Below are positions 5,801 to 36,981 of a DNA stretch of 38,884 nucleotides, in pieces. Position 1 is the first letter of the stretch. Each line of letters begins with the position of its first letter. The DNA is from a virus (taxonomy: Duplodnaviria > Caudoviricetes), in the IMG/VR virus record IMGVR_UViG_3300044728_000132, positions 1 through 38,884 of that record, one strand, 5' to 3'. Below the pieces are notes generated by a model. It saw only the letters and a program-made list of their open reading frames with translations, made no database searches and was not told the origin of the DNA. The translations under genes and the position numbers were made by a program.

Positions 5801-6559
5801 ATGCCCGCTGCACCGGCCTGGTCGCTCTGCACTGACTGGATCACAGACGAGCAGCTGACGGATGGGTGTGCTGCGTGTGAGACCGACCTGACGCATGTCT
5901 CCGAGACCGACCGCGCGTATGCGATCACCCTCGCGTCGCAGGTGCTGTTCGAGTTGACGGGGCGCCGGTGGCCTGGCCTTTGCACCACGACGAACGAGCG
6001 GCCCTGCGGACGGCACGTGGTCGGCTGCTGCGACTGCCCGCACCTGTCCGCTATCCGGTTGAGCAACGGGCCTGTCGACGCGTCGTCGATCGTCGTCACC
6101 GCTGACGGCGAGGTCGTGCCGACCGACGAGTACGCGCTGATCCGAGGGCGCATGGTGATCGGCCTGACGGACCCGCTGACGGGCATCCGTCGAGTGTGGC
6201 CGTGCTGCCAGCGGCTCGACCTGCCGCTCACCGAGGAGGGCACACTCGCCTTCACCTACCAGTGGGGGAACCTCCCGCCTGAAGGGTCGGTGCTCCCGGC
6301 GACGTTCCTCGCACGCGACTACGCGCTGGCTTGCGCGAGCGGTGGGCAGTGCTCGTCGTGCTCGATCCCCGAGGACGTTCAGAACCTCGTGCGGCAGGGC
6401 ATGTCGATGGCGATCCCCGACCCGAAGGTGCTCCTGTCTGACGGTTTCACTGGTGTCGGCATCACCGACGCCTGGCTTGCATCCCTTCGCTTCGGTGCGA
6501 AGGCTCGACGGGCGACCGCGTCCCGTCCCTCCGGTCGGCAGGCGCAGCGCGTGCAGTGA
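5801..6559 (+). CDS. Head-to-tail adaptor
   Basis: ASQVLFELTGRRWPG.C...RPC, WPCCQ, YQWG..PP, LA...AC...C.IP..V...RQG pattern of actinophage adaptors. Confidence 0.75.
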   Translation: MPAAPAWSLCTDWITDEQLTDGCAACETDLTHVSETDRAYAITLASQVLFELTGRRWPGLCTTTNERPCGRHVVGCCDCPHLSAIRLSNGPVDASSIVVTADGEVVPTDEYALIRGRMVIGLTDPLTGIRRVWPCCQRLDLPLTEEGTLAFTYQWGNLPPEGSVLPATFLARDYALACASGGQCSSCSIPEDVQNLVRQGMSMAIPDPKVLLSDGFTGVGITDAWLASLRFGAKARRATASRPSGRQAQRVQ

Positions 6560-7479
6560 CGCGGGTTGGGTACATCGGCAACTTCACTCGCCCGTGGTGC
6601 ACAGAGGTGCACGTCGCTGGGTCGCTCACGTCGCTGGGCCATGAGGTCGTGCAGCTTCAGGAGAACGCCGTCGACTTCGACCGGCTGCAGCCGCGCTTCG
6701 ACCTGCTGCTGTGGACGCGTACGTGGGAGGTCGAGCGCGACGCGGCTGAGCGGATGCTCGTGCGGTTCCGCGACGCGGGTGTCCCGTCGGTGTCGTTCCA
6801 CCTCGACCGCTTCCACGGCCTCGACCGCGAGTACCTGATCGCGCAGGAACCGTTCTTCAGGACCGACGTGCTGTTCTCACCTGATGACGGGCCGTGGGAG
6901 AAGTACGGCGTGCACCACGTGTGGATGCCGCCTGGCGTGTATCACGCCGAGTGTGTTGTGAAGCCTGCGCGCCCTGGCCGCTGGCCGTTCGACGTGGTGT
7001 TCGTTGGCTCGCACCCGTACCCGCACAAGGAGTGGGAGCCGGTGCGCACTCGTCTGATTGACACGTTCAAGCGCGCGTTCGGCAAGCGGTTCGCGATCCT
7101 GCCCGCGCCGAACCGGCCGCTGCGCGGCGCGGGATTGCAGTCGCTCTACTCGACGGTGCCCGTGGTGCTCGGTGACTCCTGCCTGGTCGGTGACCCGTAC
7201 CGCTACTGGTCGGACCGCATCCCCGAAACGCTCGGGCGTGGCGCTGCGCTGATCCATCCCGACGTCGACGGGATGGCGGACTGGTACGACGACTCCTACC
7301 ACCTCGTGAACTACTGCGTGAAGTACCCCGACGACGCGGTTGACTGCGCGTACCGCCTGCTCGCTGAGCCCGACCTGCGCGCACGGATCGCAACGCAAGG
7401 CCGCGAGACAGTGCTGGGCCGTGACACCTACCGGCACCGAATGCGGACCGTCCTCGAGTACGTGGGGGCAATGGTGTGA
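6556..7479 (+). CDS. Glycosyltransferase (CgeB/Glyco_trans_1_2-like)
   Basis: DVVFVGS, YWSDRIPETLGRG..LIHP, R..IA..G.E.V...DTY.HR motifs. Confidence 0.85.
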   Translation: MTRVGYIGNFTRPWCTEVHVAGSLTSLGHEVVQLQENAVDFDRLQPRFDLLLWTRTWEVERDAAERMLVRFRDAGVPSVSFHLDRFHGLDREYLIAQEPFFRTDVLFSPDDGPWEKYGVHHVWMPPGVYHAECVVKPARPGRWPFDVVFVGSHPYPHKEWEPVRTRLIDTFKRAFGKRFAILPAPNRPLRGAGLQSLYSTVPVVLGDSCLVGDPYRYWSDRIPETLGRGAALIHPDVDGMADWYDDSYHLVNYCVKYPDDAVDCAYRLLAEPDLRARIATQGRETVLGRDTYRHRMRTVLEYVGAMV

Positions 7480-8138
7480 GAGAGGCGCAACTCGGTGACT
7501 GGTCGGCCGTGTTCGACCCGCGCGACCTCGACATCGCGGGCGACGACTTCGTGGTCGTCGTCGAGGTGTGGGACCGCAACGACTATCGGGTCACCGGGTT
7601 CTCGGGCACGGTGATCGACGTCGGCGCGAACGTCGGCGCGTTCACCGTGCTGGCCGCGAAGGCGGGGGCTCGGCATGTGATCGCGGTCGAACCGACAGAC
7701 ACGAACCGTGAGCGCCTGCTCCACCACCTCGCGCTCAACGGTGTGGCCGACGAGGTGACGGTGCTCGACGTCGCGGTCACGGGACGGAGCGGGCAGTCGG
7801 TCGGGATGGTCGGTGATGGTGGCGGCGCGCAGGTCGCTGGCACGGGCGACGTGGAGACGGTCACGCTGGTCGAGCTCCTCGATAGGTACGGCCCGATCGA
7901 GATGCTGAAGGTCGACATCGAGGGCGGCGAGTTCGAGGCGTTCGCCGCGGTGCCTGTCGACGCGTTGCGTGGGGTGGAGCGCATCGCGATGGAGTGGCAC
8001 GGGCCCGCGTCGCCGCATCTCTCATGGCTTGAGGGCGACGAGTTGGCGCGGCTGTTCATGCTGCTCGCTGACGCGGGCCGAGTGGAAACTTTCGGGCATC
8101 CCGCGCGTGGTGGGCTGCTCTACTGGACGAGGTACTAA
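7476..8138 (+). CDS. FkbM-family SAM-dependent methyltransferase
   Basis: VIDVGANVGAFT, VIAVEP, LKVDIEGGEF, MEWH. Confidence 0.9.
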   Translation: MREAQLGDWSAVFDPRDLDIAGDDFVVVVEVWDRNDYRVTGFSGTVIDVGANVGAFTVLAAKAGARHVIAVEPTDTNRERLLHHLALNGVADEVTVLDVAVTGRSGQSVGMVGDGGGAQVAGTGDVETVTLVELLDRYGPIEMLKVDIEGGEFEAFAAVPVDALRGVERIAMEWHGPASPHLSWLEGDELARLFMLLADAGRVETFGHPARGGLLYWTRY

Positions 8139-8182
8139 GCGTGCGTTTAGCCCCCTAGTGCGGCACCCTATAAAGACCGACA

Positions 8183-8203
8183 ACCGAAGGAGAGAGACCA
8201 TGC
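8183..8203 (+). promoter_or_regulatory. Start-associated sequence copy 1 (ACCGAAGGA-GAGAGACCATGC)
   Basis: Read directly; spans the RBS and ATG 8200. Confidence 0.75.
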
Positions 8204-8739
8204 GGAAGATGTTGACGATCGTGGGGCTGCTGCTGGCAGTCTTCGCCGCGATCCTGATGATGGCTGGCCCTGCGTCAGCGTGCGGCGGGCCCTGTCCCAC
8301 CGTGCCGACAACTATCGCCACCACCACGACTGCACCATGCGATACCGAGAACGGGCGTGAGTGCCCGACCACGACCATCGCACCGACCACCACCGCGACG
8401 ACCATCGCGACCACCACGACCAAGCCGCAGGAGACGACCACGACTGGCAACGTGGGCATCTGCTGCTTGCAGGCCGGAACGACGGTCCCCTCGACCGCCA
8501 CGACGGGTGCGACCACGACCCTCGCACCGACCACTACCCCCGCACCGACCACGACGGCAGCACCCGTGGTGACCACCGCCGTCGACCAGACGGTCCCCGC
8601 TGAGGCGGCGGTCGTGCCCGCACCTGACAAGACGTTGCCCGTGACGGGGTTCGGCTGGCTCCCGTGGGTGATGGTCGCGATCGGGCTGATCGTGTTCTCG
8701 GTCCCGATGCTCATCGCTGCCCGTATCGGCAGGCGGTGA
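8200..8739 (+). CDS. Secreted Thr-rich (mucin-like) LPXTG cell-wall-anchored protein, 179 aa
   Basis: Strong RBS before ATG 8200; signal peptide MRKMLTIVGLLLAVFAAILMMAGPASA; Thr/Pro-rich body; LPVTG (8635-8649) followed by a TM helix and a basic tail (RIGRR). Confidence 0.85.
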   Translation: MRKMLTIVGLLLAVFAAILMMAGPASACGGPCPTVPTTIATTTTAPCDTENGRECPTTTIAPTTTATTIATTTTKPQETTTTGNVGICCLQAGTTVPSTATTGATTTLAPTTTPAPTTTAAPVVTTAVDQTVPAEAAVVPAPDKTLPVTGFGWLPWVMVAIGLIVFSVPMLIAARIGRR

Positions 8740-8951
8740 AGGGGCGGTACGTCCCTGAGGTGATGTTCGGCAGCGCCCTCGCAATGGGGGCGCTGTCGTT
8801 CGTCATCACAGCGGACAACATCGGCAGGCACGGCCTGAGCGCGTACGACCTGTTCGTGAGCGCGATCGCGGTGGGCACGATGATCGGGTCGGCCATCGCC
8901 CTGTACGTCCAACGGGACCGTCGTAGGGATCGGGTGTGGTGGACCCGGTAG
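8736..8951 (+). CDS. Small two-TM membrane protein
   Basis: GTGA overlap; two hydrophobic segments and an Arg-rich C-terminus. Confidence 0.6.
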   Translation: MKGRYVPEVMFGSALAMGALSFVITADNIGRHGLSAYDLFVSAIAVGTMIGSAIALYVQRDRRRDRVWWTR

Positions 8952-9622
8952 TCATCCTCTCCCCCCACCTCGACGACGCGGTGCTGTCGTGCGGGCAACT
9001 CATGGCAGGGCGGGCGGACTGCGTGGTGGTCACCATCTTCGCCGGGTACCCGCCTGCGCCGTTCCGCCTCACGACGCCGTACGACGAGCAGTGCGGGTTC
9101 CGCCATGCTGCTGAGGCGATCCGCTCCCGGCGTGACGAGGACCAGGCCGCGACCAGCGTCCTCAACGCGCGCCCGACGCACCTCGACTTCCTCGACGGCC
9201 AGTACGGCGCGCCGTTCGACTTGTACCAGGCGTGCGCCGCGGTCGAGAAGGTGATCGCAGACGTGCGACCCGAGTACGTGCTCGCGCCGCTGGGCCTGGA
9301 GCATCCCGACCATGCCCGAGCGTGCACGGTCGCGTGCCAGGTCGTCGACCCCGCGATGCTGCACTTCTACGAGGAGCTGCCTGGTCGGGTGCTGTGGCCG
9401 GAGCGCGTGCACTACCGCTACTCGATCATTCAGGCCGAGGTGGGTCGTCGAGTGCGGAACCCGTATCTCGAGCGCGCATTTCTCGGCACGGGGGAGTGGG
9501 AGGCGAAGCGGTCCGCGATCCTGAAGTACCGGTCGCAGATGGCGCAGATCGACGCGTTGGGGGACAACTCGGGGCTGACCTGTTGCATGGTGCCCGAACG
9601 ATTCTGGAAGGTGCAGTGGTGA
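8936..9622 (+). CDS. PIG-L/LmbE-family deacetylase
   Basis: LSPHLDDAVLSCG, R..ED, HPDH, K..AI..Y.SQ motifs. Confidence 0.9.
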   Translation: MVDPVVILSPHLDDAVLSCGQLMAGRADCVVVTIFAGYPPAPFRLTTPYDEQCGFRHAAEAIRSRRDEDQAATSVLNARPTHLDFLDGQYGAPFDLYQACAAVEKVIADVRPEYVLAPLGLEHPDHARACTVACQVVDPAMLHFYEELPGRVLWPERVHYRYSIIQAEVGRRVRNPYLERAFLGTGEWEAKRSAILKYRSQMAQIDALGDNSGLTCCMVPERFWKVQW

Positions 9623-10137
9623 GGCTCAACGTGGGGTGCGGGCTCGACGTCCGCGACGGCTGGGTCAACATCGACACGAACTGGAACCGGGAGGACAGCG
9701 ACATGCTCATCGCTGACGCCCGAGACCTGACCGCCTGGCATGGGCAGTGCGAGACGGTGCTGCTCAACCATGTGCTGCACCTGTTCGACTACACCGAAGC
9801 GGAGAAGGTTCTGGACGAGTGCGTCGCGTGTCTCGCTCCTGGCGGCGAGTTGGTCATCGTCGACGCCGACATCATGGGGGCCATCTACTGGGCACATGAG
9901 TGTCCGGGCTGCGACGACCATGTTGCCGACCTGGTTGCTGATGAGGTGGAGCCCACGTTCGAGGGCAAGGTGCTGCGGTGGGCAACATGGCACGGCACTC
10001 GGCGCAGCATGTGGTCGCTGGACTCTCTCGCTGATCGGCTCGAACGACGCGGCCTGGCTGTCATGCCGAGCGCGGCCGACAAGGAGTGGGCCGGTGCCCG
10101 TGAGTGGGAGTCGTTCGTCGTGGTCGGTAGGCGGTGA
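9619..10137 (+). CDS. Class I SAM-dependent methyltransferase
   Basis: RLNVGCG....GWVNID, HVLHLF, L.PGG.L.I; GTGA overlap. Confidence 0.85.
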   Translation: MRLNVGCGLDVRDGWVNIDTNWNREDSDMLIADARDLTAWHGQCETVLLNHVLHLFDYTEAEKVLDECVACLAPGGELVIVDADIMGAIYWAHECPGCDDHVADLVADEVEPTFEGKVLRWATWHGTRRSMWSLDSLADRLERRGLAVMPSAADKEWAGAREWESFVVVGRR

Positions 10138-10382
10138 TGTTCGGTCGAAGCAAGACCAGGCCGAGCCGCGGATGCGGCGCATGGTGGGCGAGCGCAGAGA
10201 ACGCGCCGCATCGTCGCTGCCGGTGCAAACTCGACGACGGGCACGATCACCCAGGCGACGACGAGCACCCGCACGGCACGTACCACGAGTGTGAGTGCGG
10301 CGAGGTGTGCACGCCTCGCGCGTTGCAGGAGAAGTGGGTTGACGGCCTCGCTGGCGGTAAGCACTGGTGGACGCCCGTATGA
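10134..10382 (+). CDS. Small Cys/His-rich putative metal-binding protein
   Basis: CG...HRRCRC...H...H.HECECG; overlaps both neighbours by 4 nt. Confidence 0.55.
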   Translation: MMFGRSKTRPSRGCGAWWASAENAPHRRCRCKLDDGHDHPGDDEHPHGTYHECECGEVCTPRALQEKWVDGLAGGKHWWTPV

Positions 10383-11395
10383 AGATCGGGCTGATCGCCC
10401 GCGCAGAGAACCGCGGGCTGGGCATCCTCACGTGGGAGATCGCACGGCACCTGGTCCCCGACCGTGTGCTGCTGATCGACATGGGTCCGCTGGCCCGCGG
10501 GTTCCCGATGCACCACGACCGTTACGACCTGTCACGCACGACCCTGGCTTTGTGGCGCGACGGCCGCGTCGCGGACCTAGCGGTGCGCGAGTGGATCGAC
10601 GGGCTCGACGTGATCTACACGGCCGAGACGTTCTACGACCCGCGCATCGTGGGGTGGGCGAACCTCGCCGGGGTGAAGACGGTCCTGCACGCGATGCCCG
10701 AGTTCCTCGGCCCTGACATCCCGAGGCCGACTGAGGTGTGGCTGCCGACACCGTGGCGCGCTGAGCACGCGGGCCCGCATCGGCTGATCCCGATCCCGAT
10801 CCCGCTCGACCGTTGGCGGTGGCCGAAGCTGAACCGGGATGGCCCGCTGCGTGTGCTTCACGTCGCGGGTCATCAGGCCGCGGCTGACCGCAACGGGACG
10901 GTGCCCTTCCTGCGTGCGTGCTCGATCCTGCACGAGGCCGTCGAGGTGACCGTCGTGGACCAGGACTGCCGCCCCTGGCAGAACGCGAAGGTGGGGCCGT
11001 ACTCGACGCTGAAGATCGAGCAGGCCCACGCTGACTACTGGACGATGTACGAAGACCAGGACGTGCTCGTCATGCCGCGCCGCTACGGCGGACTGTGCCT
11101 GCCCGTGCAAGAGGCGATCGGCGCGGGCCTCGTGCCAGTGCTGCCGCGCATCCCACCGAACGACTGGTATCCCGCGCTCCTCACGAAGACGTCGCTCAAC
11201 GGGCGACTGTTCACGCAGGCCGGACCGCTGCGCATCGGCACACCCGTCCCGTCGAGCATCGCCGCGGCGATCGACATGCTTGCGCGCGACCGCACGCAAC
11301 TCGCCGTGCACCGTGGCCGGGTGGCGGGCTGGGCCGAGGATCACTCGTGGGACGCGCTGCTCCCGACATGGCGCGCCGCGTTGGAGTCGGTGTGA
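10379..11395 (+). CDS. Glycosyltransferase (GT-B, GT4-like; actinophage type)
   Basis: MKIGLIARAENRGLG start; DRNGT; DVLVMPRRYGGLCLPVQEA.G.G; W....SW..L...W. Confidence 0.85.
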   Translation: MKIGLIARAENRGLGILTWEIARHLVPDRVLLIDMGPLARGFPMHHDRYDLSRTTLALWRDGRVADLAVREWIDGLDVIYTAETFYDPRIVGWANLAGVKTVLHAMPEFLGPDIPRPTEVWLPTPWRAEHAGPHRLIPIPIPLDRWRWPKLNRDGPLRVLHVAGHQAAADRNGTVPFLRACSILHEAVEVTVVDQDCRPWQNAKVGPYSTLKIEQAHADYWTMYEDQDVLVMPRRYGGLCLPVQEAIGAGLVPVLPRIPPNDWYPALLTKTSLNGRLFTQAGPLRIGTPVPSSIAAAIDMLARDRTQLAVHRGRVAGWAEDHSWDALLPTWRAALESV

Positions 11396-12357
11396 TCGAA
11401 CGGGTCGACGCGTACGCGTCGCACGCGCACTACGCCGAGCACATCCGTCCGGTGTGGGATGCGCTCCCCGCCGAGCGGCGCGGGACGTTCTTCGCTCCTC
11501 GCGGTACGACGTGGGGTGAGCGTGTCGGGCAGGCCAAGCCGCGGGCGCTCATCATCGCTGGCGCCGTCGACGCGTACCGCTGGCCGAGGGTGCCCCTCGT
11601 GATGGTCGAGCACGGCGCGGGGCAGACCTACCACGGCGACCCTCGCCTCGCGGACTCGCCGTCGTACTCGGGCGGCAAGGACCTCGATCAGGTCGGGTTG
11701 TTCCTCTGCCCGAACCGTGTGGTCGGTGAGAACTGGCTGGCCCGCTACCCGTCGGCGCGGGTCGCGGTTGTCGGCTGCCCGAAGTTGGACGCCGTACGCG
11801 CGATCGCGCGCACCGGCCGAGGACGTGTGGCGATGACGTTCCACTGGTCGTGCCCCACGATCCCCGAGACGATGCCCGCCCTGCCCCACTACCTCCCTGT
11901 CCTACGCCCCCTAGCGCAGGCCCTGGGCGCCGCTGGGGGCTCCCTGGTCGGGCATGCCCATCCCCGTGGGGTTCGGAGAGCCGCAGGCACCTGGGCCGCT
12001 GTAGGGGTGCCGTTCGAGCCTGACGGGCTGACGGTGCTGCGGCAGGCTGACGTGCTGGTCGCGGACAACACGTCGCTCATGTACGAAGCCGCCGCCCTCG
12101 GCATCCCCGTCGTCGCGCTCAACGCGCCGTGGTACCGACGCGACGTCGAGCACGGGCTGCGGTTCTGGTCGCACGTGCCCGGTCGACAGGTCGACGAGCC
12201 CGACGATCTGATCGACGCGGTGCTCGAAGCGGTCGAGGACCCTACGGCACACTGCGCACTACGCTCCGCGGCTGTGACCCGCGCGTACGAGTACCACGAC
12301 GACCGCGCTGCCGGTCGCGCCGCCCGCCAGATTCTCGACTGGCTCGACGATGCCTGA
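11392..12357 (+). CDS. GT-B fold transferase (CDP-glycerol glycerophosphotransferase/capsule biosynthesis-like)
   Basis: EHGAG, VGCPKLD, HAHP, ADVLVADNTSLMYEAAALGIPVV, D..AA.R.. Confidence 0.75.
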   Translation: MIERVDAYASHAHYAEHIRPVWDALPAERRGTFFAPRGTTWGERVGQAKPRALIIAGAVDAYRWPRVPLVMVEHGAGQTYHGDPRLADSPSYSGGKDLDQVGLFLCPNRVVGENWLARYPSARVAVVGCPKLDAVRAIARTGRGRVAMTFHWSCPTIPETMPALPHYLPVLRPLAQALGAAGGSLVGHAHPRGVRRAAGTWAAVGVPFEPDGLTVLRQADVLVADNTSLMYEAAALGIPVVALNAPWYRRDVEHGLRFWSHVPGRQVDEPDDLIDAVLEAVEDPTAHCALRSAAVTRAYEYHDDRAAGRAARQILDWLDDA

Positions 12358-21036: not shown

Positions 21037-21384
21037 ATGGACCTCACCGGAATCATGGGTGTCGTCGGCCTCGCCGCATTGACGCTCACGTTCGTCGACT
21101 TCCTGAAGAACCTCACCCCGCCCGATCACGATTACAACGCGGCCATCACGCAGGTCGTCGCCTGGGTGTCGGGCCTCGTGGCCGTGTTCCTCTACGGCGA
21201 GTCGCAGTTGGGCGACACGATCACGATCGGCACCACGACCCTCGACCACGCCGACACAGCGACGAAGATCATCGTCGGCCTGTCGGTCTCGTCGATCGCG
21301 AGCACCTTCTACAAGTTCAGCAAGTCGGTCGACTCAAGCGACTCGAACAAGCAGCCACCGCTCCTCGGTCCTCCTGGCCCGTAG
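21037..21384 (+). CDS. Holin-like membrane protein
   Basis: GAAAGGA RBS; 115 aa with 2-3 TM segments; follows the endolysin. Confidence 0.7.
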   Translation: MDLTGIMGVVGLAALTLTFVDFLKNLTPPDHDYNAAITQVVAWVSGLVAVFLYGESQLGDTITIGTTTLDHADTATKIIVGLSVSSIASTFYKFSKSVDSSDSNKQPPLLGPPGP

Positions 21385-21396
21385 CGGCACCCGCGG

Positions 21397-21407
21397 TGCG
21401 GTACCGT
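21397..21407 (+). promoter_or_regulatory. Putative -10 element (TGCGG-TACCGT) for the downstream small RNA
   Basis: TAnnnT hexamer at 21402-21407 with the same TGCGG prefix as the 21551 promoter. Confidence 0.4.
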
Positions 21408-21413
21408 GGGCAC

Positions 21414-21513
21414 CGCCTTCCTTGGCCGGGGGGCACCTCACGGGCAGCCCCGTTCCCACGATCCTTCGGTGACTAGGCATGGTCTCTCGGGAGCGTGAGA
21501 GCGGGGCTGCCTC
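21414..21513 (+). ncRNA. Candidate trans-acting antisense small RNA (hairpin with anti-RBS/anti-start-codon loop)
   Basis: Arms 21443-21460 and 21494-21511 pair at 17 of 18 positions. The loop holds TCCTTCGGT and GGCATGGTCTCTC, reverse complements of the start-associated sequence. Confidence 0.6.
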
Positions 21514-21534: not shown

Positions 21535-21556
21535 TGTCACACCCCTGCGGTAGGGT
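21535..21556 (+). promoter_or_regulatory. RecA-NDp/PafBC-type promoter (TGTCAC-N10-TAGGGT)
   Basis: Spacing matches the actinobacterial TGTCRG-N10-TAnnnT motif with one mismatch; heads the recombination/replication operon. Confidence 0.5.
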
Positions 21557-21589: not shown

Positions 21590-21603
21590 GAGAGACCATG
21601 CCT
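21590..21603 (+). promoter_or_regulatory. Start-associated sequence copy 2 (GAGAGACCATGCCT)
   Basis: Read directly; ATG 21598. Confidence 0.75.
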
Positions 21604-22323
21604 GACATCGTTCCCCTACCACCCGAGTTGTGCGCGCCCGACGACGCGCCCGCGATGGCCGACGTGTTACGCGGTGACCTCGTCGAGGCGGGCACGGACC
21701 TGCCGAGCAAGTGGCACATCGGTGATGATCGGTCCGCCGAGTGGGCTATGCGGATGCTCGTGCAGATCGAGTTGAAGCGAAGCGAAGTCCGCGAGCAAGC
21801 GTCGAGGTGGATGCAAGAGATCGTCGACTGGCTCGAACGGCAGGACCGCTCGCTGGCTCGTGGCGTCAACTACTTCGATGGGCAGCTTCGCACTTACGCG
21901 CTGGCTCGCCGTGCGATCGACGAGGACGCGAAGACCTTGCGCCTCCCGTCGGGTGACGTGAACACGACGAAAACGCGCCCCAGGTTGGAGATCACCGACG
22001 GGGACGCGCTCCTCGGGTTCCTGAAGGCTGCGAACCGGACGGAACTGATCCGCACGAAGGAGGAGGTGCAGGTCTCCGCGTTGAAGGACGCGGTGAAGAT
22101 CGAGCACGGGCCCGCCCTGTTCAGCGTCAGCATGGACTGCGGCGACACGTTCGAGGCCGACTCCGACGACGTGCGGTTCTGTCGTGTGTGCGGGGCCGAG
22201 GGCGCGGTGATGGAGGTCGAGCAGATCGTGTTCGAGCAGTGGTGGCCCACGCTGTACGGCGTCGTGCTGCCTGGCGTCGAGGTGGTCCCACCGTCCGTCT
22301 CAGCAAAGGTGGTACCGAAGTGA
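21598..22323 (+). CDS. Mu Gam-like host-nuclease inhibitor / DNA end-binding protein
   Basis: SAEWAMR.L coiled coil, KTLRLPSG.V...K..P, LIRTKEE....ALK, C-terminal LPGVEV; inserted C..C cluster. Confidence 0.75.
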   Translation: MPDIVPLPPELCAPDDAPAMADVLRGDLVEAGTDLPSKWHIGDDRSAEWAMRMLVQIELKRSEVREQASRWMQEIVDWLERQDRSLARGVNYFDGQLRTYALARRAIDEDAKTLRLPSGDVNTTKTRPRLEITDGDALLGFLKAANRTELIRTKEEVQVSALKDAVKIEHGPALFSVSMDCGDTFEADSDDVRFCRVCGAEGAVMEVEQIVFEQWWPTLYGVVLPGVEVVPPSVSAKVVPK

Positions 22324-22520: not shown

Positions 22521-22912
22521 GCGAGGACCGATGGATCGAGCAGGCCGAGGTGCGGTCGTTCGACGTGATCGCGCCGTTCTCCCCCTACGTCGAGACGTAC
22601 TGGCTCCCGACGATCGGGCCGTCCGCGACGTGGCTCTACCGGCGCCTCGTGCAGTGGCTGGCAGCCGAGCCTGACGGGCTGACGATCGACCTTGAAGAGA
22701 CGGGCCGGATGATCGGCCTGTACGGCGGGGTCGGCAAGAACGCGAGCGTCGTGAAGACCGGCAATCGTCTCGTGCAGTTCCACATCGTCGAGGAGGAGGG
22801 CCGGAAGCTGCGTGTGCGCATGATGCTCCCGTGCCTCACCGACCGACAGGTGGAGCACCTGCCCGAGCGTCTGCGCCGTGCGCACACCACACCCACACCC
22901 GCAGTAAGTTGA
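22517..22912 (+). CDS. Winged-helix protein resembling the N-terminus of DnaB/DnaD-type replication initiation proteins
   Basis: YVETYWLPTIGPSATWLYRRL...IDL...G..IGL...RLVQF. Confidence 0.55.
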   Translation: MSEDRWIEQAEVRSFDVIAPFSPYVETYWLPTIGPSATWLYRRLVQWLAAEPDGLTIDLEETGRMIGLYGGVGKNASVVKTGNRLVQFHIVEEEGRKLRVRMMLPCLTDRQVEHLPERLRRAHTTPTPAVS

Positions 22913-22939
22913 GCCCCCTGTAACACCCACCTCAAGAAG

Positions 22940-22952
22940 GAGAGACCATGCC
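22940..22952 (+). promoter_or_regulatory. Start-associated sequence copy 3 (GAGAGACCATGCC)
   Basis: Read directly; ATG 22948. Confidence 0.75.
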
Positions 22953-24327
22953 GAATCAACAAGACACCACGACGGGCACCGCGACGAGCCGTGCCCGTCA
23001 ACCCCGTCGTGCAGTCCGCAAGCAAGGGTCCGCGCGGTTGGCCCTGTCAGGGCCGTCCGGTTCGGGGAAGACCTGGACCGCGTTGAGCATCGCTGAGCAG
23101 TTGGGCCAGCGGGTGATCTTCATCGACACCGAGCCTGGCGACGCGGGGCAGACGGCCTCGTCGTACTACTCGGACGCGTTCCGGTTCGACGTGATCGAGT
23201 GGGCCGCGCCGTACAACCCTCGTGACCTGACGTTGACGATCCAGGAGTTGGCGACGTTGCCGTGCCCCGCCGATGGGTTCTGGCCCGGTGAGCCTGGCTA
23301 CCAGGTGTGCGTCGTCGACAGTGGCTCGCATTTCTGGACGGGTGACGGTGGCACCCTCGACATCGCGGACCAGCGGTTCTCAGGGTGGAAGGTCGCGAGC
23401 CCGGTGCAGCAGGACTTGATCGACGCGATCCTGCGCTCACCGATGCACATGATCTTCTGCACCCGAGCGAAGCAGGCCTACGAAGTGAACGAGGTCGTCA
23501 AGGACGGGCGCACGAGGCAAGAGGTCGTGAAGTTGGGCATGGCCCCGATCCAACGCGCCGACCTCGAGTACGAGTTCCAGGTCGTGGTGATGATGGACCA
23601 GGACCACGTGATGTCGATCGGCAAGACACGGTGCCAGCAGTTGGCGGGCCTCTCGTTCAAGGCTGACCATCAGGGCGACTTCGCCGCGATCTACAAGAGC
23701 TGGCTGGAAGCGGGCGAGGTGCTGATCCGGCAGGCCGACGCGGACCTGATCCGTGATGCGCTCAACACGGTGCCGGGGGAGTCGAGGGCCGCAGCGAAGA
23801 AACAGTGGCTCGACGAGTTCGGGCATCCGTCGTACCTCGTCGAGGACCGCCTGCCCGCTGCCTGGTCGTGGCTGAGCGGGACGGTCGGCGTGGACCCGCA
23901 CCAGTACGCGCCTGACGGGACCACGCTCGACGAGCCGGTGGTCGCGTGCATCACCTGCGGGCTCCCCCTGGCCGCGCGGTGGCATGACGGGGGAACCCTC
24001 GTGGTGCCTCCCAGGGAGGCGCCCCAGGAGGCCCCAGGGGGCGAGCCCGAGGAGACCCCTACCCCAACCCCCGAACCGGACCCCAGCCCCCCAGGCGAGC
24101 CCCAGGGGGCCGCTCCTGCCGATCCCCAGGGGGCTGACGGTGAGGACCCCCAGGGGGAGCCCGTCGAGGACGTCCCGACTGACGTGCGTGCCGCGTACGT
24201 GGCCACGTTGCGAGACCTCTCCGCGGACGATCTGTCGGCCGCGCTAAAGGAGGCGGGGCTCGCGGTGAACGGGTCGAAGGACGTGCGGATCACGCGCCTG
24301 GCGAACCACGTGCTGGGCGACTCGTGA
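22948..24327 (+). CDS. Sak4-like AAA ATPase/recombinase with C-terminal SAP domain
   Basis: Walker A GPSGSGKT, IDTE, VVDSGSHFW, KLGMAPIQR..LEYEF, KTR; C-terminal LSADDLSAALKEAGLAVNGSK...ITRL. Confidence 0.85.
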   Translation: MPNQQDTTTGTATSRARQPRRAVRKQGSARLALSGPSGSGKTWTALSIAEQLGQRVIFIDTEPGDAGQTASSYYSDAFRFDVIEWAAPYNPRDLTLTIQELATLPCPADGFWPGEPGYQVCVVDSGSHFWTGDGGTLDIADQRFSGWKVASPVQQDLIDAILRSPMHMIFCTRAKQAYEVNEVVKDGRTRQEVVKLGMAPIQRADLEYEFQVVVMMDQDHVMSIGKTRCQQLAGLSFKADHQGDFAAIYKSWLEAGEVLIRQADADLIRDALNTVPGESRAAAKKQWLDEFGHPSYLVEDRLPAAWSWLSGTVGVDPHQYAPDGTTLDEPVVACITCGLPLAARWHDGGTLVVPPREAPQEAPGGEPEETPTPTPEPDPSPPGEPQGAAPADPQGADGEDPQGEPVEDVPTDVRAAYVATLRDLSADDLSAALKEAGLAVNGSKDVRITRLANHVLGDS

Positions 24328-24509: not shown

Positions 24510-25213
24510 GCGTCTACCCCCTGGGCGCCGTATGGCACGAGTCCCACGCCATCGGCGCCGCGTTCATCGTGCTCCTCGCTATCGCTGACGAGGCAAACGA
24601 CGACGGGCTGTGCTCGGCCTACAACCGAAGCCGAGCGCACCTCGCCAAGAAGTGCCGACTGTCCGAACGGTCGGTGCAGCGCGCCGTCCGCGACCTCGTC
24701 GAACTCGGCGAACTGCGCGTGCTCGAACGCGGCAAAGGCAACCAGCAGTCGTCGTATCAAGTGGTCCTGGCGGGGTTCCCGCGGGGAGACAGCGTGGCTC
24801 CTCGGGGGAGACAGCGTGGCTCCTCGGGGGAGACACTGAGTCTCCTCGGGGGAGACACTGTGGCTCCCCCTATTAAGGAACCCGTTATTACCCGTTCTTC
24901 CCGTTCTACCCGTGGCGCGAAGCGCGACAAGGCAGGACCCAACTTCGAGGCCGCACATGCTCTTGCTCGCGAGGAATGGGAGAGCAGGTCACGCAAACCC
25001 GTGTGCGGCTTTCCTGCGTTCGCGTTGCGCATCGAGGAGTCGCTAGACGCGGGCGCCACCGAGGAGCAGCTTCGCAAGGTGCTCCCGACCATGACTGTGT
25101 TCAGTCGCAACGCGTTCGACTTCGCACTCGGCGGTAGCGGCAAGCGGGTACGCAAGGCGCCGGTCGATGACAGTGCGCAGCGGGCCGCGCCTGCGGGCAA
25201 GGTTGAACTGTGA
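24506..25213 (+). CDS. HTH replication initiator (lambda O-like organisation)
   Basis: VLLAIADEANDDG.C...LAKKCRLSERSVQRAVRDLVELGEL; internal direct repeats; followed by a DnaC-like gene. Confidence 0.8.
   Translation: MSVYPLGAVWHESHAIGAAFIVLLAIADEANDDGLCSAYNRSRAHLAKKCRLSERSVQRAVRDLVELGELRVLERGKGNQQSSYQVVLAGFPRGDSVAPRGRQRGSSGETLSLLGGDTVAPPIKEPVITRSSRSTRGAKRDKAGPNFEAAHALAREEWESRSRKPVCGFPAFALRIEESLDAGATEEQLRKVLPTMTVFSRNAFDFALGGSGKRVRKAPVDDSAQRAAPAGKVEL
24781..24913. repeat. Iterons of the putative replication origin
   Basis: Four ~22-bp units CGGGGGAGACA(GC/CT)G(TG/AG)(G/T)CTCC(T/C) at 24781-24868, then AT-richer TATTAAGG and four CCCGT(T) repeats. Confidence 0.75.
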
Positions 25214-30135: not shown

Positions 30136-30768
30136 ATGGCCGAACGGCGGATCGTCTACATGCCCGTCGCTGAGTTGGTCTCCGCGCCGCGCAACGCGAA
30201 GGGCCACGACACCGAGGCCATGATGAAGTCCGTCGACGCGTTCGGATGGATCGAACCGATCGTCCTCGACGGGCGCACGGGCATGATCGTGAGCGGCCAC
30301 GGTCGACGTGACTACCTGGCCGACGCTGAACTTCACGACCGCGAAGCTGCCGACTGGATCGGTGACGACGGGCTCCGCATCGACGAGCAGGGCCGCTGGT
30401 GTACCCCTGTCGTGGTCGGATGGGAGTCGACCGACGACGCGCACGCCGAGGCTGCTGGCATCGCGCTGAACCGTGTCGGTGAGGGAGTGTGGGATCGGGG
30501 CACGTTGGCCGACGCGCTCGACGACCTCGTGACGAAGTACGGCGATGCGATCGGGTTCACACCGATGGACCTCGACGACCTGCGCCTGTCGATCGCACCA
30601 CCGATCCTCGACGACCTCGCGGACCAGGTGGGCAAGCACGACCCGCAGGACGCGTGGCCAGCGTTCCGTGTCCGCCTCCCACCGCCGCTCGTCGAGCGGA
30701 TGGGGAAATGGTGGGCCGCACTCGAGGGTGAGACCGACATCGATAAGGCCGAGGCCCTCACCTCGTGA
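30136..30768 (+). CDS. ParB/Srx-like N-terminal domain protein (DNA-modification associated)
   Basis: L...PRNAK.H......SV..FGW.EPIVLD..TG.IVSGHGR; A.IA.NR..E..WD...L. Confidence 0.85.
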   Translation: MAERRIVYMPVAELVSAPRNAKGHDTEAMMKSVDAFGWIEPIVLDGRTGMIVSGHGRRDYLADAELHDREAADWIGDDGLRIDEQGRWCTPVVVGWESTDDAHAEAAGIALNRVGEGVWDRGTLADALDDLVTKYGDAIGFTPMDLDDLRLSIAPPILDDLADQVGKHDPQDAWPAFRVRLPPPLVERMGKWWAALEGETDIDKAEALTS

Positions 30769-31652
30769 GGGTGCGGCTGCTGCTCTCGTACTGGTACTAC
30801 CGAGACGCCGACCTCGACGAGTTCGCGCGCCGCTGCTCGATCGACGGTGTGGCACCGGACATGTGGGCCGACTCGGGCGCGTACTCCGCGATGACGAGGG
30901 ACGCGGTGATCACTGTCGACGAGTACGCGGCGTGGCTCCACAAGTGGGACCACCTGTTCAGCGCGGCGTGCAACCTCGACGTGATTGGCAACGCGAAGGG
31001 GACGATGGAGAATCAGCACGCGCTCGAACGGCTGGGGTGCGCGGTGCTGCCCGTCTACCACATGCGCGACGAGGACCCGCGTGTGCTGAAGAAGATCGCG
31101 GCGTCCTACCCCTACGGGTGTCTCGGTGGGATGGCGGGCACGGGTGTCCCGCCGTCCGTGTGTATGCGATGGATGGTCGACACGATGATGCGCGTGAAGG
31201 GCAGCGAGATCGTGTGGCACGGGCTCGGCGCGACAAGCAACGCGGTGCTCGGCGGGCTCCCGCTCTACAGCGTCGACTCGTCGTCGTGGCTGGCCGGTCG
31301 ACGGTGGGGCTACTACTCGCTCTTCGACTCGACGACGGGACGGAGCGAGCAGGTCCACATCGGGGACCACGAGGGCCTGGCGCGTAACGGTCGTCTGCTG
31401 CGTCGCCTGGGATTCGAGCCACGCGAACTGTTCTCGGCAGACCCGAAGGGTGGCCCGCCCTGGCCGGTGCGCGACGCGCTCGGGATCGCGACCTACAGCG
31501 AGGTGGAGGCGTGGTGTCAGCGACGGCACGGGCCGGTGCTGCGTGCCGACCGTCCCGACGAGGAGCCGGGTTTACGGATGTACGCGGTGACCGGGCCGGG
31601 TGTCAAGACTGACGAGGTCGTGCAGATGCTGGCCGAACGGAGAGCAGCGTGA
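30765..31652 (+). CDS. DpdA-like / tRNA-guanine transglycosylase-fold base-exchange enzyme
   Basis: ADSGAYSA, NLDVIG, PVYH, LGGM, WHGLG, YSVDSSSW motifs of phage TGT/DpdA proteins; in an operon with folE. Confidence 0.8.
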   Translation: MRVRLLLSYWYYRDADLDEFARRCSIDGVAPDMWADSGAYSAMTRDAVITVDEYAAWLHKWDHLFSAACNLDVIGNAKGTMENQHALERLGCAVLPVYHMRDEDPRVLKKIAASYPYGCLGGMAGTGVPPSVCMRWMVDTMMRVKGSEIVWHGLGATSNAVLGGLPLYSVDSSSWLAGRRWGYYSLFDSTTGRSEQVHIGDHEGLARNGRLLRRLGFEPRELFSADPKGGPPWPVRDALGIATYSEVEAWCQRRHGPVLRADRPDEEPGLRMYAVTGPGVKTDEVVQMLAERRAA

Positions 31653-32422
31653 CATTCGACGACCTCGTGCTCGCGATCGGCCCGACTCGCGGCGAGGTGG
31701 TCGCGCACCCGATCTACTTCCACCTGACGTCAGTGCCGAGGCTGCGCGTGTTCATGGAGCACCACGTGTGGGCGGTGTGGGACTTCATGTCTCTGCTCAC
31801 CGCGCTGCAACGGGAGTGCACCTCGACGACGTTGCCGTGGGTGCCATCCCACAACACGACCGCGGCGCGGTTCGTGAACGAGATCAAGGTGGCCGAGGAG
31901 TCCGACGTCGACGGGGACGACGGGTTCGTCAGTCACGTCGACCTGTACCTGAAGGCGATGGGCGAGGCGGGTGCCGACACCGGCCCGCTCGAACGGACCA
32001 TGCGCTACTTCGATTCCCCGTCGTCGGCGTTCCACCTCGACCACGTGTGGGAGGTCGCACGGAAGTACGGCGCACCCGAGGGCGCGGTCCGCTTCCTCGC
32101 CACGACGTTCTCGATCCTCGAGCAAGGCTCGCTCCCCCACATCGCTGCCGCGTTCACACTCGGACGCGAGCAGCTGATCCCCGCGATGTTCGAGCCGTTG
32201 CTCCATCACCTCGACGCGGGCGGTAAGACCCTGCGTTACTACCTCGACCGACACATCGAGATCGATGGCGACTCGCACGGCCCGCTGGCCCGCGCTCTCG
32301 TCGAGTCGGTGTGCGACACCGAGGACGCGTGGGCTGCCGCCCGCCACGGTGCAGTCACGGCAGTGATGGCCCGCCGTCGACTGTGGGATGACACCCTCGA
32401 CGCAATGCTGAAAGGAACCTGA
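31649..32422 (+). CDS. DUF3050 heme-oxygenase-like diiron protein
   Basis: FMEHHVWAVWDFMSLL..LQ, NEI...EESD, SH..LYL.AM, GRE.LIP.MF, YYL.RHIE.DG..HGP. Confidence 0.85.
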   Translation: MTFDDLVLAIGPTRGEVVAHPIYFHLTSVPRLRVFMEHHVWAVWDFMSLLTALQRECTSTTLPWVPSHNTTAARFVNEIKVAEESDVDGDDGFVSHVDLYLKAMGEAGADTGPLERTMRYFDSPSSAFHLDHVWEVARKYGAPEGAVRFLATTFSILEQGSLPHIAAAFTLGREQLIPAMFEPLLHHLDAGGKTLRYYLDRHIEIDGDSHGPLARALVESVCDTEDAWAAARHGAVTAVMARRRLWDDTLDAMLKGT

Positions 32423-33057
32423 TGACCACCGTCACGAACAACGACCACGCCCCTGTCGGCGCGCCGCTCCCGCCGAAGCCGGTCGACCTCGACACCCTCG
32501 AACGCGGAGTCACGCTGCTCCTTCAGGGGCTCGGCCAGTCCGACAAGACGGAGGTGATGGCGAACACTCCTCGACGCATCGCGGAGATGTACGGCGACAT
32601 CATCAACGCGGCGTGGTGCGACATCGAGATCCCGTGGAAGACGTTCCCGAACCCAGCGAAGGACGACGTCCTCATCACGGTGACGGACTGCCACTACGTG
32701 TCGCTGTGCGAGCATCACCTCATGCCCGCCCTCGGCGTGGCCCACTTCGCGTACGTGCCCGACCAGAAGATCACGGGCTACTCGAAGGTGAAGAAGGGAC
32801 TGAACTACCTGGCGCGTCAGCCGCAGTTGAACGAGCGGCTGCTCGTCGAAACCCTCGACGCGTTGGAGTCGGTGCTCGAACCCCGAGGCGTGGCGCTCTC
32901 GCTCGCGTCGATCCACATGTGTCTGATCTGCAAGAGCAACGCGCCGAGTCAGGAGGTCGTCGTCGTGACGGGCTACCGCGGCTGCCTGCGCGAAGACCCG
33001 TGGCGCCGGGAGTTCCAGTCGCTCGCCACCTCGAAGCCTCACGTGTTCGGTGCCTGA
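32422..33057 (+). CDS. folE: GTP cyclohydrolase I (FolE), divergent
   Basis: TPRRIA, SLCEHHLMP..G..H.AYVP, G.SK, AR.PQ..ERL, GVA.....HMC. Confidence 0.9.
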   Translation: MTTVTNNDHAPVGAPLPPKPVDLDTLERGVTLLLQGLGQSDKTEVMANTPRRIAEMYGDIINAAWCDIEIPWKTFPNPAKDDVLITVTDCHYVSLCEHHLMPALGVAHFAYVPDQKITGYSKVKKGLNYLARQPQLNERLLVETLDALESVLEPRGVALSLASIHMCLICKSNAPSQEVVVVTGYRGCLREDPWRREFQSLATSKPHVFGA

Positions 33058-35039: not shown

Positions 35040-35095
35040 TGCGCCTCGTGGCACGGGCCCTCGGGTCCGCGCCACGCACGGAGCACTCAGGCTCC
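35040..35095 (+). promoter_or_regulatory. Two-hairpin RNA motif, copy B
   Basis: TGCGCCT, CGTGGC...GCCACG stem, CAC, then GGAGC-ACTCAG-GCTCC. Confidence 0.7.
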
Positions 35096-35123: not shown

Positions 35124-35136
35124 GAGAGACCATGCC
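35124..35136 (+). promoter_or_regulatory. Start-associated sequence copy 4 (GAGAGACCATGCC)
   Basis: Read directly; ATG 35132. Confidence 0.75.
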
Positions 35137-35707
35137 CACCTACCGATTCACCATGACGTGTGGCCATATCCGCGAGGTCGAGGGCGACGAGCCCCCGTCG
35201 AGCCGAACCCCCCACTGCTACGACTGCCGCGCCGCCACGGGCAAGAAGGTCCAGAAGGCAATGCAGCTGCTCGAGGTGAGGGACGGGAAGAAGTGGACGG
35301 CGATCGACATCCCCAACCCGGCGCCCCGAGGTGAGGGACGCAAGGGTGGTGGCAAGAAGCGGGCGAGCCGCGCCGAGCGCGTGCCCACCGTCATTGCCGC
35401 GATGGACGAAGCCCGAGCACTGAAGGCCGCGAAGAAGAACGGCGGTCCGATCCCGGCAACCCCGAACCTGGACGCGGTGAACGCGGCCCACGGCATCAGC
35501 ACCGTCAACGGCGTGAAGACCGAGGAGGAGACCACCGACGAGTCAGTGTCGGTGGAGACCACCGAAGTCAAGAAGGTGACCCGGAAGCCTGCGTCGAAGC
35601 AGGCGAGCAAGGCCCCGGCGAAGGCCCCGGCCGCGAAGAAGAACGTCACCCCCATCCCGAAGGGCTCGACCCGCAAGCCTGCGAAGGCGACGGCGAAGTC
35701 CGCGTGA
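35132..35707 (+). CDS. Zn-ribbon protein with a Lys/Ala/Pro-rich (histone H1-like) tail
   Basis: CGH...CYDC; C-terminal KKVTRKPASKQASKAPAKAPAAKK... Confidence 0.7.
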   Translation: MPTYRFTMTCGHIREVEGDEPPSSRTPHCYDCRAATGKKVQKAMQLLEVRDGKKWTAIDIPNPAPRGEGRKGGGKKRASRAERVPTVIAAMDEARALKAAKKNGGPIPATPNLDAVNAAHGISTVNGVKTEEETTDESVSVETTEVKKVTRKPASKQASKAPAKAPAAKKNVTPIPKGSTRKPAKATAKSA

Positions 35708-35711
35708 TTGT

Positions 35712-35770
35712 TGCGCCTCGTGGCACCGACTCCTCGCGGGTCGGTGCCACGCACGGAGCAATCAGGCTCC
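35712..35770 (+). promoter_or_regulatory. Two-hairpin RNA motif, copy C
   Basis: TGCGCCT, 14-bp stem, CAC, then GGAGC-AATCAG-GCTCC, immediately before the RBS. Confidence 0.7.
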
Positions 35771-35781
35771 ACCGAAAAGGA

Positions 35782-35794
35782 GAGAGACCATGCC
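35782..35794 (+). promoter_or_regulatory. Start-associated sequence copy 5 (GAGAGACCATGCC, preceded by ACCGAAAAGGA)
   Basis: Read directly; ATG 35790. Confidence 0.75.
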
Positions 35795-36746
35795 CGCATA
35801 TTTCGATACCGGATTCTCAGTACGTCAGCCGATGTGGCACGGCGAAGGGCTCGTGCTCGACGACTACCCCACCGACTGGAACGACGCGCGAGTCAAGGCC
35901 GGTCTGACATGGGAGCCGGAACTCCGGCCCCTGTACCACAAGATCGGGGACGACTTCGTTGCCCTCACCGACCACCAGGTCGTCGTGCGTGACGACACGC
36001 AAGCGCCCCTCGGCCCCGTGTCCGACACGTTCGGTCTGGTCCCCAACAAAGTGATGGGCGAAGTGATCGAGGTCATCCTCGGCCTCGGCGCGAAGTTCGA
36101 GACCGCTGGCTCATGCAAGGGCGGGGCGCAGGTGTGGGCCGTTGCTTACCTCGACGAACCCGAGACCATCTGCGGTGACGACACCGAGACCTATCCGTTC
36201 ATCGCGTTCCTCAACTCCCACAACGGAGAGGGTGCGTGCAAGGTCCTCCCGACCTCAGTGCGGGTGGTGTGCTGGAACACCTACCAGGCGGCGAGCATGG
36301 AGGGTGACCGCACGGGCCGTCAGTTCGTGTTCCGCCACACCGGCGACGTCCTCGGCCGGATCGAGGAAGCGAAAGCCGCGATGGCCGGAGTGCGGGACGA
36401 GTTCAAGGCGTGGCAGGCACTGGCCGAAGAGTTGTTCGGCATGAAGATCGACGACGTGAAGTTCAACCACTTCGTTAGCGACTTCATCCCGAGCCCGCCC
36501 GAGGGCACGTACTCGGATCGGGTCCGCGACAACATCGAGGAGGCCCGCTCGATCTTCAAGCACATCTACCTCGACAGCCTGACGACCGATGGGCACCGCG
36601 GCACCGGCCTCGGCCTGGTCGACGCGGCGGTCGAGTACCTGGACCACGCCCGCGGCTATCGGAACTCCGACACCTACCTCGGCCGGACCCTCCTGCGCCC
36701 CGAGCCCCTGAAGGCGAAGGCAGTGGCACTGGTACGTGGCCTGTAG
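35790..36746 (+). CDS. DUF932 / TIGR03299-like phage protein
   Basis: WHG.G, AGL.W, VVR.D....LG.V, ETAGS..GG..VW, NSH.G, VRVVC.NT, RHT, AV.EY.DH. Confidence 0.88.
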   Translation: MPAYFDTGFSVRQPMWHGEGLVLDDYPTDWNDARVKAGLTWEPELRPLYHKIGDDFVALTDHQVVVRDDTQAPLGPVSDTFGLVPNKVMGEVIEVILGLGAKFETAGSCKGGAQVWAVAYLDEPETICGDDTETYPFIAFLNSHNGEGACKVLPTSVRVVCWNTYQAASMEGDRTGRQFVFRHTGDVLGRIEEAKAAMAGVRDEFKAWQALAEELFGMKIDDVKFNHFVSDFIPSPPEGTYSDRVRDNIEEARSIFKHIYLDSLTTDGHRGTGLGLVDAAVEYLDHARGYRNSDTYLGRTLLRPEPLKAKAVALVRGL

Positions 36747-36753
36747 TTGAGCG

Positions 36754-36786
36754 GCCCAGGGAGCGCCCCAGCGGTGCTCCCTGGGC
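36754..36786 (+). other. 14-bp intergenic hairpin
   Basis: GCCCAGGGAGCGCC-CCAGC-GGTGCTCCCTGGGC between DUF932 and the next gene. Confidence 0.65.
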
Positions 36787-36798
36787 ACCCACCATCGA

Positions 36799-36818
36799 AC
36801 CGAAGGAGAGACCATGCC
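36799..36818 (+). promoter_or_regulatory. Start-associated sequence copy 6 (ACCGAAGGAGAGACCATGCC)
   Basis: Read directly; ATG 36814. Confidence 0.75.
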
Positions 36819-36981
36819 GACACCGACCATCACCCCACCCGAGCGCGCCGTCGAACAGGTCGAACCGCTCGTGAAGTCCACCCGTCCCCCTCACCCGCTG
36901 GTCGTAGCTGCCGACGCGTTCCTCGCGGCGTGCGACCACATCATCACCGAGAACACGATCACGACCGAGCCAGGAGACTGA
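36814..36981 (+). CDS. Hypothetical protein, 55 aa (not in the ORF track)
   Basis: Begins at start-associated sequence copy 6; MPTPTITPPERAVEQ... Confidence 0.65.
   Translation: MPTPTITPPERAVEQVEPLVKSTRPPHPLVVAADAFLAACDHIITENTITTEPGD

Follow-up and report, generated by a model that had tools for sequence, protein, structure and literature searches.

A phage hairpin whose loop is complementary to a sequence tag at the starts of six genes

Start-associated sequences (SAS) and extended start-associated sequences (ESAS), described in cluster K mycobacteriophages and cluster EF Microbacterium phages, are 13-nt asymmetric tags that stand in one orientation at the ATG starts of separately led, non-structural genes (PMC3203893, PMC7302621, PMC11373665). 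Each of four K1 phages also carries a single reverse SAS away from any start, and the reader of the SAS was left open in 2011, as either RNA or protein (PMC3203893); in 2024 the role of the SAS was still called unknown (PMC11373665). Here we describe a similar arrangement in an uncultured soil phage, known from a linear virus record of 38.9 kb (IMGVR_UViG_3300044728_000132, 67% complete, with about 67% G+C; hereafter the window, meaning the whole 38,884-nt stretch analysed). A 13-nt tag covers the start codons of six genes, and the only reverse copy of that tag lies in the loop of a hairpin at 21442-21512. On balance we lean towards a reading, drawn from sequence comparison, in which a plus-strand RNA made from this hairpin would pair in trans over the tagged start sites and repress their translation. 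A literature search, to which subscription papers were not open, turned up no description of a cognate RNA for start tags.

The likeness to SAS includes the single reverse copy off the starts, which in K1 and K5 phages also sits in a hairpin loop. The window tag is nevertheless a different 13-mer, unrelated to the SAS (GGGATAGGAGCCC / GGGAAAGGACCCC), and whereas SAS contain AGGAG or AGGAC and end 3-7 bp before the start, it includes the AUG and first codon (ATG-CC). The loop covers all 13 tag bases in the window, as against 10 in cluster K. ESAS place a 17-bp promoter inverted repeat 5' of some sites, whereas the upstream modules of the window appear to be RNA-like hairpins; and no integrase was found in the complete genome of the one relative identified, in which it differs from SAS phages.

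Other described systems share parts of this design. The mycobacterial 6C/B11 RNA, which works in actinobacteria, represses many mRNAs through a hairpin-loop segment that pairs with their ribosome sites (PMC10470900), and its chaperone independence is reported in a title in that article's reference list. It is host-encoded and uses two C-rich loops (C runs) on generic G-rich sites, whereas the window RNA would use one 13-nt guide without a C run, specific to a private phage tag, and has no Rfam match. The c4 antisense RNA of P1/P7 is likewise a phage-encoded structured RNA that pairs in trans with the phage's own message (PMC8546580, PMC2864571). It controls one operon (ant, an antirepressor) in a temperate immunity circuit, whereas here, with no RF01695 match in the window and no integrase, one tag marks six to eight separate genes, with Gam, Sak4-like and DUF932 genes among the targets. 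Cluster A stoperators are also 13-bp asymmetric, orientation-biased repeats, but they are repressor-protein DNA sites that act on transcription (PMC3203893, PMC4351075), whereas in the window an ATG lies within every sense copy, and the reverse copy belongs to a stem-loop that covaries. The part consulted of a review of phage small RNAs from 2025 names only cases with a single target (sar, OOP, aQ, 24B_1 and sas; PMC12197685). As read here, the window system would act much as B11/6C and c4 do, though it belongs to neither; it resembles the SAS but lacks their position and sequence features.

A start-codon tag and its single mirror copy

The tag, GAGAGACCATGCC, occurs exactly at five start codons (21590-21602, 22940-22952, 35124-35136, 35782-35794 and 36806-36818) and with 12 of 13 bases at a sixth (8192-8204), all on the plus strand; its reverse copy occurs once, on the minus strand at 21476-21488. 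A two-strand search here agrees with a preliminary description of the locus, made from the sequence alone: exact copies stand only at starts and at the one antisense site, and two matches with two mismatches lie away from starts. With up to two mismatches allowed, the window holds nine matches, where shuffled sequences average 1.49 and none of 100 has as many as 9, and Markov models predict 0.0004-0.001 antisense copies where one is observed. The tag is the top start-associated repeated 13-mer both in the window and in its relative, G001, and its sense copies stand at ATG starts in 6/6 and 8/8 cases, respectively. AGGAG arises at tagged starts only where the flanking bases supply it.

Every plus-strand copy contains the ATG of an open reading frame. 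The tagged genes encode a Mu Gam-like protein (21598-22323, 241 aa; PF07352), an AAA_24/Sak4-like protein (22948-24327, 459 aa), a 191-aa protein without a known family (35132-35707), for which ESM Atlas gave no match above its bars, a DUF932 protein (35790-36746, 318 aa), a 55-aa protein whose gene is conserved in G001 (36814-36981) and, behind the 12/13 tag, a Thr-rich 179-aa protein with a signal peptide and an LPVTG anchor (8200-8739), which has the same tag variant in G001. The gene labels assigned earlier hold for Gam, Sak4, DUF932 and the anchored protein; the match behind the neighbouring holin is weak. SAS genes follow gaps of more than 50 bp; by inspection, such a gap precedes the genes at 8200, 21598, 35132, 35790 and 36814, and one of 35 bp the gene at 22948. 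The gene at 8200 sits within the virion block.

Some leaders of these genes share further elements. A two-hairpin module on the plus strand lies 5' of the 35132 tag (35048-35095) and, as a second copy, 5' of the 35790 tag (35720-35770); with a third full copy in G001, it precedes two window sites and three G001 sites. The module, traceable also at 36754-36786, consists of a long hairpin, then a GGAGC-nnTCAG-GCTCC hairpin, then a spacer and the tag, and its arms, which pair as RNA, vary while pairing holds. A loosely shared stretch of the TnA(G/C)CCCCCT(A/G) type lies 5' of three tagged genes in both genomes (at about 8140-8175, 21535-21556 and 22905-22930) and may be an operator or promoter element.

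The reverse copy lies in the gap directly 3' of a holin-like gene (21037-21384, plus strand), the last gene of the virion and lysis block, which is 88% identical in G001 and matches phrog_1299 weakly (E 3e-4). The 18-bp stem described earlier (21443-21460 with 21494-21511) is present, with a fold z-score of -4.3, and comparison with G001 resolves a full stem of 23 pairs (5' arm 21442-21464, 3' arm 21490-21512) that carries a terminal loop of 25 nt (21465-21489). Within the loop stand the guide, GGCATGGTCTCTC (21476-21488), which is the exact tag complement, and TTCGGT (21465-21470), a possible auxiliary segment complementary to ACCGA(A). The guide is predicted to be partly folded within the loop by GAC/GUC pairs, with about GGCA left exposed; opening the tip GGCAUG is predicted to cost 3.2 kcal/mol, and CUAG just 5' of the tip fits the YUNR U-turn motif of antisense loops, which is common by chance. 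A small hairpin (21415-21434), predicted in both genomes with differing sequences, would form the 5' part of the RNA. Rfam gave nothing for the hairpin, RF01695 included, and only a sub-threshold P10 match elsewhere in the window; ARAGORN gave nothing at the hairpin, and no match to it was found in cultured phages. It is identical in two DNA sequencing runs, possibly of the source sample, and no RNA run was listed among those that contain it.

The extended -10-like element TGCGG-TACCGT (TGCGGTACCGT at 21397), noticed earlier and present at 21397-21407, is the predicted promoter of the RNA, with a start near 21414, and falls in a 16-nt stretch identical in G001. A second such element, TGCGG-TAGGGT (21546-21556, 3' of the hairpin and in a 23-nt stretch identical in G001), is the predicted own promoter of Gam. 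Sites of the form TGnGRTAnnnT number only two per genome, both on the plus strand, one before the hairpin and one between it and Gam; none of this form was found on the minus strand of either genome. The pattern alone is not above chance, and the 21397 element is missing from the sigma-70 scan list. The two flanking sites suggest separate transcripts, and because the predicted Gam promoter lies 3' of the hairpin, even contact between loop and Gam would be in trans. The preliminary description had the RNA made at the end of the late operon. Since the same promoter-like form precedes the hairpin and the early Gam gene, the RNA may, like Gam, be expressed early, and late timing is not supported.

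Conservation in a related genome and pairing with the tagged starts

Scans of viral contigs, metagenomes and genomes returned one true relative, the complete genome G001 (the same as L008; L022 is the same contig), which has blocks 69-88% identical to the window. It carries eight sense tags, two of them on genes missing from the window, and one reverse copy in the equivalent hairpin. The six orthologous tags match at 78/78 bases, against 81/120 upstream and 93/120 downstream, and all 14 tags are near-exact (180/182 bases). Tag conservation ends on both sides where complementarity to the loop ends, and it persists where no GGAG ribosome site results. The loop is also invariant, with 25/25 bases kept and one base inserted in G001 (p about 0.004-0.017 against a background of about 80%). 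The stem, by contrast, differs at 9 of 46 positions with pairing kept at 93.5%: two pairs are altered on both sides, two exchange C-G and U-G, and three change between pair and mismatch, whereas slid registers of the stem pair at only 41-52%. Counted by cells, the G-U pairs point to the plus strand (6 against 1).

Conservation bears on whether the hairpin has a function at all. It might be a relic, an inverted duplication of the Gam start within an ordinary terminator or stabiliser hairpin; the reverse copy does adjoin its best-matching site, and only two genomes are compared. A loop kept so fully against its background, and of 25 nt, unlike that of a terminator, makes this highly improbable. 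Beyond G001, the tag system is absent from 15 distant Sak4-carrying loci and from the whole records G002, G004, G005 and G006. Chance matches to the 16-nt guide occur in eleven further contigs, which have no tag and no such stem. The first argument from protein sequence, that tagged proteins begin Met-Pro as far as the loop reaches, survives for two families and not for a third. Among Sak4 homologues with an M start, 4/5 of the nearest and 7/109 of the farther ones begin Met-Pro, and among full-length Gam homologues 3/3 near and 0/4 far ones do so, a hint that the tag may persist in the lineages of the nearest Sak4 and Gam homologues. Among DUF932 homologues the start is family-wide (89/118) and so uninformative on the tag.

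The 13-pair duplex has a predicted energy of -24.8 kcal/mol (-23.1 at the 12/13 site), and the net energy after opening of guide and target, with loop topology ignored, is -9.6 to -15.5 kcal/mol at all 14 sites. A check by pairing energy, suggested in the preliminary description, came out in part as expected: when the whole loop was set against every possible start triplet (1536 and 2113), targets took the top four ranks in each genome. In c4, two separate segments are both required on the target, and the CI RNA of P4 belongs beside it. A bipartite contact of this kind had been proposed here, with a second guide reaching from 21462 to 21470. Its TTCGGT does lie in the loop, but its TCC (21462-21464) is stem, where T21462 and the base it pairs with, A21492, have both changed in G001. 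ACCGA(A) occurs within 28 nt of the start at about half of the targets (8/14) against 2/64 other conserved starts (Fisher p 5e-6, for a test in which orthologues are not independent and many control starts lack free leaders), and in 4/49 SAS leaders (20-nt window); it is gained and lost between orthologues of the window and G001. Simultaneous pairing of two helices would moreover require a linker of 5-6 nt to span about 19 stacked pairs, for which on geometry it is probably too short unless the junction bends. Full bipartite pairing seems unlikely, and TTCGGT is at best an optional toehold.

Gam is the best partner in both genomes, with 15 pairs (one G-U) and a loop-to-tag distance fixed at 100-101 nt. 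That the best-pairing site is also the adjacent one fits an origin in cis, and a switch confined to Gam can be imagined: transcripts from the upstream promoter or from read-through would fold the loop onto the Gam start as a pseudoknot and be silent, those from the downstream promoter would be translated, and the other tags would be a shared strong start read by something else. The tandem promoter-like sites on either side of the hairpin suit such a switch, as does the finding of no clear U-tract terminator 3' of the stem. It leaves unexplained, however, the exact agreement of the other 12 of 14 tags with the 13 loop bases; the predicted fold of the long transcript, among nested folds, leaves the hairpin intact; and in K5 phages (below) the loop occurs without a tagged gene directly downstream. 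We therefore consider it unlikely that the loop acts in cis on Gam only.

A parallel loop in cluster K mycobacteriophages

In the K1 phage Anaya, the SAS complement CTCCTATCCC makes up the 10-nt loop at the top of a long hairpin (L040:34874-34883), which occupies a non-coding gap at the right end. This hairpin gap is matched in 215 records and the 40-nt hairpin top in 154. The K1 gap position was read in eight further genomes (Niklas, Biglebops, Amgine, Krueger, Yuna, Scarlett, Keshu and Edugator); in Niklas and Biglebops the loop is kept at the right end, unpaired on a long stem. Edugator lacks it in the K1 gap and has it at the left end, and in all three K5 genomes read, those of Paola, Rando14 and Edugator (L078:612-621, L079:612-621 and L085:1077-1086), the same ten bases stand fully unpaired on a stem of 15-17 pairs, at the left end between tRNA-Trp and the small terminase gene, with thousands of bases separating them from the SAS block. 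The stretch of right arm read in Paola (16.5 kb) contains 8 SAS. If gene gaps are equivalent, as seems probable, the K1 and K5 loop places fall in the span that is late-transcribed in Adephagia (PMC11373665). Within part of cluster K the anti-tag loop is thus a portable module, a point in favour of action that is in trans and late. The invariant loop on a covarying stem, the two extra tags of G001 and the cluster K loop at two positions all favour the trans-acting anti-start RNA first put forward, which stands as a candidate.

The K1 gap has features of its own. At L040:34690-35060 and in L043-L050 it is a conserved, strongly structured non-coding stretch, about 300 nt long, in which a TAGACT -10-like site is invariant across cluster K; it is probably the late leader and has no Rfam match.

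Besides the place of the Gam site, several observations weigh against repression in trans by a plus-strand RNA. Stem covariation is not significant against shuffles (129/500) and comes from only two genomes, 69-88% alike. The two strands of the window have equal fold z-scores (-4.39 and -4.37), and only those of G001 favour plus (-4.84 against -3.19 for minus). Non-target sites reach -29.2 kcal/mol, outranking two window targets, so that duplex energy separates targets incompletely. None of the 14 sites carries a tag variant of the kind that G-U pairing would tolerate, and the joint change of loop and start tags that the preliminary description looked for in relatives was found in no case, either between the window and G001 or in cluster K. 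There, the loop has drifted to a pyrimidine one in Amgine and Krueger, whose SAS is unchanged, and matching SAS covariation was not found; the loop is missing from the K1 gap in Yuna, Scarlett and Keshu (genomes partly read); TM4 and Pixie, read as whole genomes, keep SAS without a matching loop, their best runs being 7-8 nt and within genes; and the Microbacterium phage AnnaSerena has SAS and no loop copy of its own motif. Because the loop is missing or eroded in these places, and because a conserved CCC is left uncovered, the loop cannot be the only reason for the SAS to exist, and such tags likely have another reader too.

Some of these observations would be met by a protein site. The tag would then be bound by an activator or repressor of translation, or by a DNA-binding protein of stoperator type, and the reverse copy would be a minus-strand decoy or an opposite-facing operator. 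Near-exact tags without wobble variants fit this, as does the persistence of SAS in TM4, Pixie and AnnaSerena, which have no mirror loop; the minus strand, too, folds well, and the 2011 article left protein or RNA open (PMC3203893). Yet a minus-strand promoter-like site of the form found here is lacking and the G-U pairs favour plus, both of which also disfavour the minus-strand decoy transcript named as an alternative at the outset. A DNA operator, moreover, needs no covarying stem, and complete G001 has, among the folds searched, no HTH_3 repressor or integrase. On this evidence a protein site seems rather unlikely.

Genomic setting and proposed mode of action

Tail, glycosylation and lysis genes occupy the window up to the holin-like gene, all on the plus strand, and are followed on the same strand by Gam, Sak4-like, replication, 7-deazaguanine-type and small genes. 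The G+C content, the LPVTG protein, leaderless TAnnnT sites and DUF932 relatives in actinophages point to an actinobacterial host. TAGnnT sites stand 6-8 nt before the starts at 5801, 16653 and 30136 in both genomes, as is typical of leaderless transcripts. Tyrosine integrase, serine recombinase and HTH_3 (PF00589, PF07508 and PF01381) have 0 matches in complete G001, other repressor folds not having been searched, and a lytic life is therefore likely. A row of ParB-like, queuine tRNA-ribosyltransferase-like, DUF3050 and GTP cyclohydrolase genes (30136-33057) is likely a 7-deazaguanine DNA-modification cluster, of which the DUF3050 gene would be an unusual member. The replication-initiator gene contains 22-nt tandem repeats (24770-24857) that resemble an iteron-like origin. 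Within the virion block, genes for glycosyltransferases, an FkbM methyltransferase, a PIG-L deacetylase and a glycerophosphotransferase lie at 6556-12357, with the tagged LPVTG gene inserted among them.

Under the reading we lean towards, the hairpin would give rise to a stable plus-strand transcript of about 100 nt. By pairing in trans with the tagged messages, across their ribosome sites and AUG codons, this RNA would turn off translation of all of them together. Pairing is predicted to begin with the exposed GGCAU tip on AUGCC and to zip through 13 pairs, and an RNA chaperone is predicted not to be needed. The tagged genes (Gam, Sak4-like, DUF932, the surface protein and small uncharacterised genes) appear to be separately led, early or host-facing, and may be needed in a burst. 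Supplied both by its own promoter and by late read-through out of the holin-like gene, the RNA would accumulate as time passes and genome copies multiply, and would act as a shut-off timer.

The same plus-strand RNA might instead be a guide or activator that delivers a nuclease, a modifier or an initiation factor, or that stabilises messages. The strict Watson-Crick match is in keeping with this, as is the promoter form common to the hairpin and early Gam, which suggests co-expression with the targets; the second conserved loop segment and the structured leaders could bind a protein. Pairing that covers the AUG is hard to square with activation, given the established behaviour of small RNAs, and no candidate protein was found among the family matches of the window. 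We regard this as quite improbable. 

That many phages combine a private tag over chosen starts with one portable hairpin whose loop reads that tag is a generalisation to which we give somewhat less than even odds. If it is true, a gene would join such a regulon by gaining 10-13 bases, and scattered early, often toxic genes would be silenced by one 100-nt RNA with no repressor protein. The window hairpin and the reverse SAS of cluster K would then be independent cases, and an RNA would be the missing SAS reader proposed in 2011. Such a system would also provide a translation switch for actinobacteria that is both compact and programmable, and would let regulons be read by rule from the sequence of a phage alone. 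The loop-displayed mirror copy provides a specific candidate for the reader of the SAS, and one that is testable in cultured phages on M. smegmatis.
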